A DNA stretch of 64,000 nucleotides. Source: a phage. Below the pieces are notes generated by a model, which was not told the origin of the DNA, ran no database searches, and saw only the letters and a program-made list of their open reading frames with translations. The position numbers were made by a program, and so were the translations under genes. Position 1 is the stretch's first letter. Every line of letters starts with the position of its first letter. The stretch lies in the sequence record PX880102.1. The stretch is one strand, 5' to 3'. Below, piece after piece: positions 54,293 through 64,000 of this stretch.

Positions 54293-54300
54293 TATAAATA
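54293..54300 (+). promoter_or_regulatory. Late promoter TATAAATA for gene 34
   Basis: Exact TATAAATA 34 bp upstream of gene 34 ATG. Confidence 0.7.
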
Positions 54301-58215: not shown

Positions 58216-59331
58216 ATGGAAAAATTTATGGCAGAGTTTGGACAAGGATATGTCCAAACGCCATTTTTATCGGAAAGTAATTCAGTAAGATATAAAATAA
58301 GTATAGCGGGTTCTTGCCCGCTTTCTACTGCAGGACCATACGTCAAATTTCAGGATAATCTTGTTGGAAGCCAAACATTTAGCGCAGGTCTTCATTTAAG
58401 AGTTTTTGACCCTTCTACAGGAGCATTAGTTGATAGTAAGTCATATGCTTTTTCAACTTCAAATGATACTACATCAGCTGCTTTTGTTAGTTTCATGAAT
58501 TCTTTGGCGAATAACAGACTTGTTGCTATATTAACTAGCGGAAAGGTTAATTTTCCTCCTGAAGTAGTATCTTGGTTAAGAGCAGCAGGAACGTCTGCTT
58601 TTCCATCTGATTCTTTATTGTCAAGATTTGACGTATCATATGCTGCCTTTTATACTTCTTCCAAAGGAGCTATTGCATTAGAACATGTTAAACTAAGTAA
58701 TAGAAAAAGCACAGATGACTATCAAACTATTTTAGATGTTGTATTTGACAGTTTAGAAGACGTTGGAGCTACGGGATTTCCTAAAAGAACATATGAAAGC
58801 GTGGAGCAATTTATGTCAGCAGTCGGTGGAACTAATAACGAAATTGCACGTTTACCAACTTCATCCGCAATAAGTAAACTCTCTGATTATAATTTAATTC
58901 CTGGCGATGTTCTTTATCTTAAAGCGCAGTTATATGCTGATGCAGATTTACTTGCGCTTGGAACTACAAATATATCTATCCGTTTTTATGATGAATCGAA
59001 TGGATATATTTCTTCAACACATGCCGAGTTTACTGGTCAAGCTGGGTCATGGGAATTAAAGGAAGACTATGTAGTTATTCCAGAAAATGCAGTAGGATTT
59101 ACGATATATGCACAAAGAACTGCGCAAGCAGGTCAAGGTGGCATGAGAAATTTAAGCTTTTCTGAAGTATCAAGAAATGGAGGAATTTCAAAACCTGCTG
59201 AATTTGGCGTCAATGGTATTCGAGTTAATTATGTCTGTGAATCTGCTTCACCTCCGGATATAATGGTACTTCCTACACAAGCATCGTCTAAAACTGGTAA
59301 AGTGTTTGGACAAGAATTTAGAGAAGTTTAA
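58216..59331 (+). CDS. 35: Long tail fibre hinge protein gp35 (371 aa)
   Basis: Length and position as T4 gp35. Confidence 0.9.
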   Translation: MEKFMAEFGQGYVQTPFLSESNSVRYKISIAGSCPLSTAGPYVKFQDNLVGSQTFSAGLHLRVFDPSTGALVDSKSYAFSTSNDTTSAAFVSFMNSLANNRLVAILTSGKVNFPPEVVSWLRAAGTSAFPSDSLLSRFDVSYAAFYTSSKGAIALEHVKLSNRKSTDDYQTILDVVFDSLEDVGATGFPKRTYESVEQFMSAVGGTNNEIARLPTSSAISKLSDYNLIPGDVLYLKAQLYADADLLALGTTNISIRFYDESNGYISSTHAEFTGQAGSWELKEDYVVIPENAVGFTIYAQRTAQAGQGGMRNLSFSEVSRNGGISKPAEFGVNGIRVNYVCESASPPDIMVLPTQASSKTGKVFGQEFREV

Positions 59332-59362: not shown

Positions 59363-59370
59363 TATAAATA
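59363..59370 (+). promoter_or_regulatory. Late promoter TATAAATA for gene 36
   Basis: Exact TATAAATA 23 bp upstream of gene 36 ATG, right after a terminator hairpin. Confidence 0.7.
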
Positions 59371-60058: not shown

Positions 60059-63000
60059 ATGGCTACTTTAAAACAAATACAATTTAAAAGAAGCAAAACT
60101 GCAGGAGCACGTCCTGCCGCTTCAGTATTAGCCGAAGGTGAATTGGCTATAAACTTAAAAGACCGTGTACTTTTTACTAAAGATGACCAAGGAAATATTA
60201 TTGATCTGGGTTTTGCTAAAGGCGGTAGTATTGACGGGAATGTTATTCATACAGGCAATTATAACCAAACTGGCGATTATACTTTAAATGGTGTCTTCAC
60301 TCAGACTGGTAATTTTAATTTAACTGGTATTGCTCGAGTAACTCGCGATATTATTGCCGCTGGGCAGATTATGACTGAAGGCGGAGAACTTATTACAAAA
60401 AGTTCAGGTACAGCGCATGTTCGTTTTTTCGATAACAATAGTCGCGAACGCGGAATCATTTATGCCCCGGCTAATGATGGTTTAACTACACAAGTACTTA
60501 ATATCAGGGTTCAAGACTACGCCGCTGGTAGCGAAAGCACTTATGCATTTTCAGGCAGTGGACTATTTACTTCACCTGAAGTATCAGCATGGAAATCTAT
60601 TTCGTCTCCACAAATTCTAACCAACAAAGTCATTACTAATAATAAATCTACGGGTGATTATGACATCTATTCGATGGCAGACAATGTTCCATTGTCTGAA
60701 AGCACTACTGCTATTAATCATCTTCGTGTCATGCGTAATGCCGTTGGTTCTAGTATTTTCCATGAAGTTAAAGATAATGATGGAATAACTTGGTATGCAG
60801 GTGATGGACTTGACACCTATCTTTGGTCATTTACTTGGAGCGGCGGAATTAAATCGAGTCACTCAATTTCTATTGGTTTAACACCTGGTAATAAAGATTA
60901 TTCAATATTAGGACCATCTAGTATTGCTTTAGGAGATAATGATACTGGATTTAAATGGCATCAAGATGGATATTATTTTAGCGTTAATAATGGAACAAAA
61001 ACGTTTTTATTTAGTCCTAGCGAAACAACTAGCCTAAGAAAATTTGTAGCTGGATATTCTACTAACGGAACCGATTTAACTACTCCTCCAACTGAAAACT
61101 ATGCATTAGCCACTGTTGTTACTTACCATGATAATAACGCATACGGCGACGGTCAAACTCTTTTAGGATATTATCAAGGCGGTAACTATCATCATTATTT
61201 CCGCGGTAAAGGTACTACAAACATTAATACTCACGGCGGTTTGTTAGTTACTCCTGGTAATATTGACGTTATTGGTGGTTCTGTTAATATCGATGGTAGA
61301 AATAATAATTCAATTTTAATGTTTAAAGGCTATACCATGGGTCAAAGCTCCGTTGATAACATGTATATAGCTGTTTGGGGAAATACTTTTACTAATCCAA
61401 GTGAAGGCACCCGTAAAAATGTCATGGAAATTTCTGATGATATTGGATGGATGCATTATATTCAACGAACAACTGCAGGTAAAGTCGAATCGGTTCTAAA
61501 CGGCACCCAGATTGTTAATGAAAACTTGACCGTAGTAAAAAATGCTACATTTGATGGTACAATCAGCGCAGCAGGTGAAATTTCATCTGGGGCTGTGAAT
61601 GCGCTTCGTATTTGGAACGCAGATTATGGAGCTATTTTTAGACGTTCAGAAGGCAGTCTTCATATTATTCCAACTGCTTACGGTGAAGGTAAATATGGCG
61701 ATATCGGTCCACTTCGCCCGTTTAGTATGGCTTTAGATACCGGTAAAGTTACTATTCCAGATTTACAATCAAGTTACAATACGTTTGCTGCTAACGGCTA
61801 TATTAAATTTGTTGGTCATGGAGCGGGTGCCGGCGGTTATGACATTCAATATGCTCAAGCGGCTCCTATTTTCCAGGAAATTGATGATGATGCTGTAAGC
61901 AAATATTATCCTATTGTTAAACAGAAGTTTTTAAATGGTAAAGCCGTTTGGTCTTTAGGTACTGAAATTAATTCGGGTACATTCGTTATTCATCATCTGA
62001 AAGAAGATGGTTCACAAGGCCATACGTCTCGTTTTAATCAAGACGGTACTGTTAACTTCCCAGATAACGTTTCTGTCGGCGGCGGTGAAGCTACTATTGC
62101 TCGCAATGGTAATATCTGGTCTGATATCTGGAAAACGTTTACTTTAGCAGGCGACGTAACTAATATTCGCGATGCAATAGCTACTCGTGTTGCTAAAGAA
62201 GGTGATACGATGACCGGTAGGTTGACTTTATCTGCTGGAAATGATGCCCTTGTTTTAACTGCAGGCACGGGCGCTTCATCGCACATCCGTAGTGATGTAG
62301 GTGGTACAAATAATTGGTTTATAGGCAAAGGCGGCGGCGACAATGGTCTAAGTTTTTACAGTTACATTACACAAGGCGGTGTGAACATAACAAATAACGG
62401 CGAAATAGCGCTTTCTCCTCAAGGACAAGGAGCGTTTAATTTTAATAGAGACCGCCTTCATATAAACGGTACACAATGGACCGCACACCAGGCTGGCGAT
62501 TGGGGAAATCAATGGCGCCAGGAAGCTCCTGTATTTGTGGATTTTGGTAATGTCGGTAATGATAGTTATTATCCTATTATTAAAGGAAAATCTGGTATTA
62601 CTAATGAAGGGTATATATCTGGTGTAGATTTTGGTATGCGACGCATTCCTAATAACTGGGCACAAGGTATTATTCGTGTAGGTAATCAGGAAAACGGTTC
62701 CGACCCACAAGCTATCTTCGAATTCCACCATAATGGAAACATGTGCGTTCCTGACATGGTTAAAGCTGGAGTAAGAATATCAGCCGGTGGAGGTGACCCT
62801 GTATGGACAGGCGCATGTGTTGTTATTGGTGATAATGACACCGGATTAGTTCATGGTGGTGACGGCCGAATCAATATGGTTGCCAATGGTATACATATTG
62901 CAAACTGGGGAGCAGGCTATCAATCTCATCCTGGGCTTTGGGATTCAACCGGTGCTTTTTGGACAGAAGTTGGAAGAGCTATCGTTTCTCATGGGCATCT

Positions 63001-63388
63001 CGTTCAGGCAAATGATAGTTATTCAACGTTTGTCCGTGATGTTTATGTCCGTTCTGATATTCGTGTTAAAAAAGACCTTGTTAAATTTGAAAATGCTTCT
63101 GAGAAGCTTTCAAAAATTAATGGTTACACTTATATGCAGAAGCGAGGCCTAGATGAAGAAGGTAATCAAAAATGGGAACCTAATGCCGGTTTAATTGCCC
63201 AAGAAGTTCAAGCTATTTTACCTGAATTAGTTGAAGGCGATCAGGATAGTGAAGCTTTACTTCGTTTGAACTATAACGGTGTAATTGGTTTAAATACAGC
63301 TGCAATCAATGAGCATACTGCAGAAATTGCAGAACTTAAATCAGAAATTGAAGAACTTAAAGCATTAGTTAAATCATTGTTAAAATAA
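60059..63388 (+). CDS. 37: Long tail fibre distal subunit gp37 (1109 aa) with C-terminal self-cleaving chaperone-like domain
   Basis: Position after 36; C-terminal SDIRVKK motif and coiled-coil tail; followed by gene 38. Confidence 0.9.
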
Positions 63389-63393
63389 TAAGA

Positions 63394-63407
63394 GGGGCTT
63401 CGGCCCC
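63394..63407 (+). terminator. Intercistronic GC hairpin between genes 37 and 38 (attenuator or RNA stability element)
   Basis: GGGGC-TTCG-GCCCC immediately followed by GGAGG Shine-Dalgarno of gene 38. Confidence 0.5.
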
Positions 63408-63419
63408 TTGGAGGTTTAT

Positions 63420-64000
63420 ATGGCAGTAACAGGACCGTGGGTAGGATCGTCTGCAGTAGTTAATACAGGACAAAATTGGATGGGTGGTGCCGCGCAGAGA
63501 TTGAGAATGGGAATTCCGTTTTGGATGAGTAATATGATAGGTAGATCTGTTGAAATAATTCACACGCTTGGAGCAGACCATAACTTCAATGGTCAATGGT
63601 TCCGAGATAGATGTTTTGAGGCAGGTAGTGCACCTATAGTGTTTAATATCACTGGAGATTTAGTATCATATTCTAAAGATGTTCCTTTATTCTTCATGTA
63701 TGGAGATACACCGAATGAATATGTTCAGTTGAATATACACGGCGTAACGATGTATGGACGTGGCGGTAATGGCGGTAGCAATAGTCCTGGTTCAGCTGGA
63801 GGTCATTGTATTCAAAACGATATTGGTGGGAGACTAAGAATTAATAATGGCGGAGCTATTGCTGGAGGTGGCGGCGGTGGCGGTGGCGGATATTATTCTC
63901 CTTTTTCACAAATGAGATTGACTTTTGGAGGTGGCGGCGGGCGTCCGTTTGGCGCACCGGGCGGATCTATTGATATGCAATCAGGAGCAACTGCTGGTAC
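63420..64000 (+). CDS. 38: gp38, T2-type receptor-recognising adhesin (5' part; runs off window end)
   Basis: N-terminus [13 protein letters not shown]... and polyglycine blocks typical of T2-family gp38. Confidence 0.85.

Follow-up and report, generated by a model that had tools for sequence, protein, structure and literature searches.

Within a 64,000-nucleotide stretch of phage DNA (sequence record PX880102.1; this whole stretch is referred to as the window), positions 63420-64000 very probably encode the start of gp38, 193 residues out of about 258. In T2/T6/S16-like Tevenvirinae this protein is a monomeric adhesin that caps the long tail fibre and binds the receptor, which here is most likely Tsx. 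On translation, this 5' part of gene 38 reads on the plus strand for 193 codons plus 2 nucleotides free of stops, and the frame exits at the window end; the full gene is expected to have 258 codons, with its stop near 64194-64196, beyond the window. The original prediction had given the coordinates, start and glycine motifs of this partial frame correctly, and the glycine string it quoted falls inside a run of nine glycines (residues 149-157, nucleotides 63864-63890; part of an 11-residue string at residues 149-159). A second glycine block of 13 residues follows at residues 170-182, and the glycine content is 38% over residues 113-193 but 12% over residues 1-112. The glycine blocks are not a chance effect of composition, given the Pfam matches, the two solved structures and the 100% identity to seven phages in GenBank that are described below; Tandem Repeats Finder, applied to 63000-64000, reports short trivial repeats only (for example, (GGCGGT)x2.8 in the glycine run). 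The features of the region are collected in Table 1.

Table 1. Features of the tail-fibre region and their positions in the window (GRM, glycine-rich motif; HVS, hypervariable segment; aa, residues of the protein concerned)
Feature	Position	Strand	Basis or remark
Gene 34	54335-58207		
Gene 35	58216-59331		
T4 late-promoter consensus TATAAATA	59363..59370	+	31 nt before gene 36 ATG; nearest such motif upstream of gene 38
Gene 36	59394-60050		
Gene 37, distal long-tail-fibre subunit, 1109 aa, partner capped by gp38	60059..63388	+	ORF list; Pfam Gp34_trimer, Peptidase_S74
gp37 C-terminal tip (from aa 918) and intramolecular chaperone domain (aa 999-1109, nt 63053-63385)	62810..63385	+	6f45_A, Peptidase_S74
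C(UUCG)G tetraloop hairpin GAGGGGC-UUCG-GCCCCUU, between gene 37 stop and gene 38 ribosome-binding site	63392..63409	+	stem in both MFE and centroid structures
Shine-Dalgarno GGAGG	63410..63414	+	5-nt spacer to gene 38 ATG at 63420; read from sequence
Gene 38, 5' part, codons 1-193 plus 2 nt	63420..64000	+	translation; Pfam GP38/Gp38_N; PDB 9v85_A/6f45_D; 100% DNA identity to MK327937 gene 38
N-terminal attachment domain, aa 1-45	63420..63554	+	Gp38_N aa 1-40; W7/W20/W35; docks on gp37 trimer tip
Beta-helix domain, N-terminal part, aa 46-112	63555..63755	+	aligned to 6f45_D, 9v85_A
GRM1, GRGGNGG, aa 113-119	63756..63776	+	conserved in 10/10 aligned sequences
HVS1, SNSPGSA, aa 120-126, complete	63777..63797	+	identical in T6, RB27, FL23, KarlGJung, Paracelsus
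GRM2 with conserved strand, aa 127-157	63798..63890	+	ends in nine-glycine run
HVS2, 12 residues, aa 158-169, complete	63891..63926	+	identical in RB27, FL23, KarlGJung, Paracelsus; 1 difference from T6
GRM3, 13 residues, aa 170-182	63927..63965	+	alignment, segment map
HVS3, first 11/26 residues, aa 183-193	63966..64000 (codons to 63998)	+	cut by window end; identical in RB27, KarlGJung, Paracelsus

Homology confirms gene 38 of the window as a gp38 adhesin of the T2/T6/S16 type. The 193 translated residues match Pfam GP38 (PF05268) with 185.1 bits (cut-off 25, E=2e-54), and residues 1-40 match Gp38_N (PF21721) with 76.9 bits (cut-off 25, E=1e-21); on a full-length relative the GP38 score rises to 238 bits, with the whole model covered. 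Both of the only two solved gp38 structures, which we compared by sequence homology, are matched: PDB 9v85_A is the best solved-structure match (E=3e-68), followed by 6f45_D, the gp38 of Salmonella phage S16 (E=5e-43, residues 1-183). The 9v85_A chain is a GFP-gp38 fusion whose gp38 part agrees with PP01, AR1 and HY01 at all 158 aligned residues; gp38 of this PP01/AR1 type (PDB 9V85) has a beta-helix domain near-identical to that of the window gp38, but its HVS1-HVS3 are unrelated in sequence. PP01 reportedly uses OmpC of O157:H7, and S16 is said to bind OmpC of Salmonella. The S16 protein (PDB 6F45; Dunne et al. 2018) has the same three-domain architecture, three tryptophans and position of the poly-glycine helix 3 as the window gp38, to which it is about 52% identical overall, although all of its hypervariable segments differ. 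The three tryptophans (W7, W20 and W35) are invariant across the 10 gp38 adhesins that we aligned, S16 included; their docking role is taken from the description of the S16 structure (PMC6851490).

Segment boundaries were placed by conservation in our own alignment, after the scheme of five glycine-rich motifs and four hypervariable segments of Trojet et al. 2011 (PMC3157838). By the resulting map and the conservation pattern, the window gp38 shows the expected alternation through GRM1-3, HVS1-2 and the start of HVS3. The glycine run of GRM2 corresponds to helix 3 of S16, 151-GGGGGGGG-158 (S16 numbering per PMC6851490), and the beta-helix part that precedes GRM1 (residues 46-112) has zero or one difference relative to RB27, FL23 and KarlGJung. 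Most of the hypervariable segments had been thought to lie beyond the window end, and this does not hold: HVS1 and HVS2 are complete inside the window, HVS3 is interrupted with 11 of its 26 residues inside, and HVS4 is the only one wholly beyond (with the wider segment boundaries of Lutz et al. 2025, PMC12032242, the conclusion does not change). Outside the window fall the remainder of HVS3, GRM4, HVS4, GRM5 and the C-terminal end, amounting to the last 65 codons as judged from relatives of 258 residues. The missing portion nevertheless matters for function. Position G208 of T6, which is altered in the Yersinia-adapted adhesin of phage PST (PMC3157838), is residue 205 here, and also lies beyond the window.

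We aligned the segments between the glycine blocks with gp38 proteins of known receptor specificity, as had been proposed with the original prediction, counting differences per alignment column against the gp38 of phage vB_EcoM_G10400 and taking the 11 visible columns as HVS3. No difference is found in HVS1, HVS2 or visible HVS3 for the Tsx-dependent phages RB27, KarlGJung and Paracelsus; FL23 has a single difference, in visible HVS3 (none in HVS1 and HVS2), and T6 has none in HVS1, one in HVS2 and two in visible HVS3. The corresponding counts, for HVS1, HVS2 and visible HVS3, respectively, are 6/8, 10/13 and 10/11 for Ox2 (which recognises OmpA), 5/8, 12/13 and 9/11 for T2 (FadL), and 7/8, 11/13 and 10/11 for S16. 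Overall gp38 identity in the alignment is 84% to T6 and 48% to T2. The specificity domain of the window gp38 is, on these comparisons, of the T6 subtype and not the T2 subtype; the label 'T2-type' that had been attached to the gene is thus right at the level of the family and wrong for the part of the protein that confers specificity. T6, RB27, FL23/FL44, KarlGJung and Paracelsus, which have Tsx-recognising T6-type gp38 proteins, have a specificity domain like that of the window gp38. The T2 protein (FadL/OmpF) belongs to the same family and shares the scaffold of glycine-rich motifs, but differs from the window gp38 in every hypervariable segment, and Ox2 gp38 (OmpA) has a beta-helix part near that of the window (4 of 68 columns differ) but does not share the hypervariable segments.

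The literature ties this subtype to one receptor. T6-like adhesins, including that of RB27, recognise Tsx (Trojet 2011, PMC3157838); FL23 and FL44 require tsx (Lutz 2025, PMC12032242); and KarlGJung (Bas37) and Paracelsus (Bas36) are given as users of Tsx in PMC13353012, which cites Maffei 2021. More generally, gp38 subtypes cluster cleanly by receptor, both in Lutz 2025 (PMC12032242) and in a 2026 preprint covering 54 typed adhesins (bioRxiv 10.64898/2026.04.02.716166). The receptor of the window gp38 is therefore most likely the nucleoside channel Tsx, because its visible hypervariable segments are identical to those of Tsx-dependent phages, because subtype predicts receptor, and because Q164 and M165 are kept; the prediction rests in part on residues beyond the window. 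Q164 and M165 are the equivalents of T6 Q167 and M168, residues that are altered in PST and unchanged here. The visible part of HVS3 (its first 11 residues) is T6-type, and those relatives that are identical over the visible part are all T6-type.

A different outcome, which we regard as unlikely, is that this protein belongs to the same adhesin family but binds a receptor that is not Tsx, or not Tsx alone (for example, OmpA, LPS or a Yersinia protein), through the unseen distal part of HVS3, through HVS4 or through some subtle difference. Small changes can have such effects: the T6-like adhesin of PST, through three changes located in HVS2 and HVS3, has a range widened to include Yersinia and OmpA (PMC3157838), and the single substitution Q206L in HVS3 of RB51/RB68 switches specificity from OmpF to OmpW (bioRxiv 10.64898/2026.04.02.716166). 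Close relatives of the window gp38 do vary beyond the window, at residues 201, 208, 211, 229 and 232, and in HVS4 of the G10400 type position 229 is a tyrosine (Y229), as opposed to the serine of those Tsx phages that were typed by experiment. Against this stand the identity of every visible hypervariable residue to that of Tsx-dependent phages, the retention of the two residues that are changed in PST, and the clustering of gp38 subtypes by receptor. Tsx accordingly remains our predicted primary receptor. The broader statement that host range is set by the hypervariable segments of gp38 can be kept for the choice of primary receptor but not for host range as a whole, because phages with identical Gp38 differ in their infection patterns (Lutz 2025, PMC12032242).

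The rest of gene 38 can be read in relatives. The last 621 nucleotides of the window show 100% identity to Escherichia phage vB_EcoM_G10400 (MK327937) and 99.7% identity (2 nucleotides differ) to Escherichia phage 4E10, and genes 37-38 together have 12 mismatches in 3942 nucleotides relative to G10400 (99.7% identity), gene 38 itself being free of them. The 193 visible residues recur unchanged in seven GenBank phages (G10400, 4E10, GEP001, BMB16, P8, KMB40 and IME537), whose full gp38 proteins are 98.8-100% identical to that of G10400, equivalent to 0-3 differences in the last 65 residues. Translation of five of these genes (all but those of BMB16 and P8) gives 258 residues each, with GRM4, HVS4 and GRM5, so that the architecture of glycine blocks and variable segments, the absence of which from the complete frame would have counted against an adhesin, is present in five of five; for BMB16 and P8, a like continuation is implied by 99.6% identity over the full length in tblastn. 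Extending the reading to 12 close relatives, we find in 12 of 12 a T6-type protein of 258 residues with GRM4, HVS4, GRM5 and a conserved C-terminal end, but a single difference among the first 193 residues (99.5% identity) can go with up to about eight in the last 65. For G10400 (QBO63769.1) and 4E10 (OQ689735, WJJ57653.1), the likeness to the window extends from the visible residues to the flanking gene 37, the hairpin and the ribosome-binding site.

The source of the window is, by nucleotide comparison, a T4-like phage of E. coli, a Tequatrovirus close to vB_EcoM_G10400, with a genome that is mosaic relative to it. Over the last 25 kb (39001-64000) identity to MK327937, the best record, is 97.0%, compared with 99.7% in genes 37-38, which argues for a different isolate with nearly the same fibre module; outside this module the G10400 genome differs from the window source by about 3%. 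An exact-product look-up returned no product identical to the window gp37, and a 50-mer with three window-specific variants had no match in IMG/VR, while a 50-mer taken at the very end of the window matches only phiE142 and Yersinia phage ZN18, neither of which is the source.

A mosaic genome of this kind raises the question of whether gene 38 of the source might be chimeric or disrupted past the window end, either by acquisition of another HVS3/HVS4 cassette through recombination at glycine-rich motifs or by a frameshift in a run of glycine codons, in which case the G10400 continuation would not apply. We consider this very improbable. The glycine-rich motifs have been proposed as recombination hot-spots, and among natural T6-type versions of gene 38 there is one with a perfect 51-nucleotide duplication at HVS2/GRM3; however, genes 37-38 follow G10400 to the last base of the window with the few mismatches given above and none in gene 38, every one of the close relatives that we read continues as a T6-type protein of normal length, and 14 selected recombinants showed no exchange between GRM1 and GRM5 (Trojet 2011, PMC3157838). 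It would be a long shot, then, for the last 65 codons to hold a different HVS3/HVS4 cassette, or a duplication mediated by glycine-rich motifs like that of ZN18, and so to make a chimeric adhesin; were it so, T6-type HVS1 and HVS2 would be combined with other distal loops, and the receptor would not be predicted by the T6 subtype.

Two of the records compared have features of their own. Yersinia phage vB_YepM_ZN18 (IMGVR_UViG_2974787500_000001 = MN716856, 43980-44813; L020:388-1221) has a T6-type gene 38 of 277 codons, in which a perfect 51-nucleotide tandem duplication (2.3 copies, 100% match) repeats HVS2 and the first half of GRM3; this is the sole record aligning in one piece among 405 matches. 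The host of ZN18 is Y. pseudotuberculosis, and HVS2 is among the segments tied to Yersinia tropism in T6-like adhesins; the duplication may add a genuine loop and helix, or it may have arisen during sequence assembly. In the G10400 record (MK327937, 161213-161905), a coding sequence annotated as 'holin' starts 17 nucleotides inside gene 38, whereas in the records of 4E10, T6, T2 and T4 gene t begins about 20-31 nucleotides after the gene 38 stop; the G10400 start is probably a mis-called start codon.

The fibre subunit encoded immediately upstream is consistent with an adhesin of this kind. The last 192 residues of gp37 match 6f45_A (E=3e-44), the gp37 tip in the S16 crystal structure that also contains gp38, and a Peptidase_S74 domain is found at residues 999-1058 (E=1e-12), with an SDIRVKK motif at residue 999; both the tip and the chaperone domain of S16 are homologous to those of the window gp37. 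An S16-like tip with a putative self-cleaving chaperone domain fits capping by gp38. T6 gp37 likewise carries Peptidase_S74, whereas T4 gp37 has Collar and Phage_fiber (fibre repeats) domains and no S74. The T4 gp38 is a tail-fibre assembly chaperone that is not a virion component (NC_000866 annotation; PMC6851490). That the window gene could encode such a chaperone of gp37, absent from the virion and leaving receptor binding to gp37, has a negligible probability: it is favoured only by the position after gene 37 and the common gene name, which are all that the T4 gene shares with the window gene, whereas T4 gp38 (from NC_000866) has no similarity to the window gp38 (BLASTP E=1.9), a Pfam search of T4 gp38 gives no GP38 match, and the window gp37 has S74 and an S16-like tip but no Collar. 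The earlier reading of gene 38 as a receptor-recognising adhesin rather than the T4 assembly chaperone is therefore upheld, with both Pfam domains and both structures matching and the T4 protein unrelated. As a separate observation, residues 450-556 of gp37 match Gp34_trimer (PF21446, E=7e-8), as do the gp37 proteins of T4 and T6, which suggests a module common to the proximal and distal half-fibres.

The attachment end of gp38 comes in two kinds. The N-terminal module of the window gp38 is of the RB27/FL23/S16 kind (PWVGSS), as opposed to the T6/Ox2/KarlGJung kind (MAVVGVPGWIGSS; VPGWIGSS in T6 and Ox2); it differs at 20-21 of 49 columns from the kind found in T6, Ox2, KarlGJung and Paracelsus, while RB27 and FL23 share the type of the window. 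The gp37 tip follows the same division: in the 100 residues immediately preceding the S74 domain, the window gp37 is 83-94% identical to RB27/FL23 and about 30% identical to T6/Ox2. The N-terminal type of gp38 co-varies with the type of the gp37 tip and chaperone domain, and the same Tsx specificity domain is thus carried on two attachment modules, each matched to its fibre. Two attachment modules with one specificity domain are part of the modular picture already published (Trojet 2011, PMC3157838).

These homologies allow a mechanism to be proposed for the window fibre. The gp37 chains would trimerise with the help of their own C-terminal Peptidase_S74 domain, which would then be cut off at about Ser999, as suggested by the SDIRVKK motif and by the behaviour of T2 gp37 and of S74 domains elsewhere. 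S74 domains self-cleave, and the gp37 of T2 is processed, as has reportedly been described for that phage. If the window proteins behave as in the S16 structure, the three helices of the gp38 N-terminal domain would fix one monomer to the exposed tip of gp37, with W7, W20 and W35 in three equivalent pockets. By homology, the glycine-rich motifs pack as a polyglycine-II sandwich projecting from the beta-helix, with the hypervariable segments as its distal loops, and these loops would bind extracellular loops of the outer-membrane beta-barrel, here predicted to be Tsx. Reversible contact between gp38 and its receptor may then start the T-even cascade, in which the short tail fibres bind the LPS core and the sheath contracts.

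Gene 38 is probably read from the late transcript of gene 36. The consensus TATAAATA was not found between genes 37 and 38, and the nearest upstream occurrence precedes gene 36, so we infer that genes 36, 37 and 38 form one late transcript; the window as a whole has 19 matches to the consensus, versus 7.8 expected by chance. The exact motif also occurs at 54293-54300, 41 nucleotides before gene 34. Within the 31 nucleotides that separate the gene 37 stop codon (63386-63388) from the gene 38 ATG, the hairpin at 63392-63409 is annotated in MK327937 as a 'putative transcriptional terminator'. We rejected it as a plus-strand terminator, because no T-run follows the hairpin, and terminator prediction did not call it; more likely, the hairpin serves to stabilise or process the late transcript that contains it. 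An Rfam scan of the whole 64-kb window found no family reaching its gathering score. A 75-residue antisense reading frame at 63369-63596 (minus strand, TTG start) was set aside as mechanical, lying inside a strongly conserved plus-strand gene and being unannotated in related records. Further upstream, residues 58-123 of gp35, the hinge protein, match Pfam ILEI (PF15711, interleukin-like EMT inducer; E=5e-8) with 33.8 bits where the cut-off is 27, a domain whose name one would not expect to meet in the fibre of a phage.

Published work already covers the gp38 family and its structure, the logic of its glycine-rich motifs and hypervariable segments, and how subtype relates to receptor, and the same 193 residues are already in GenBank for the seven phages named above, so the import of the assignment is small beyond annotation. 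It places primary receptor recognition of this Tequatrovirus in gp38, not gp37. With a T6-subtype adhesin and Tsx as its likely receptor, loss of tsx would be the expected first route to bacterial resistance, and a subtype and receptor call of this kind may be useful when phages are chosen for cocktails.
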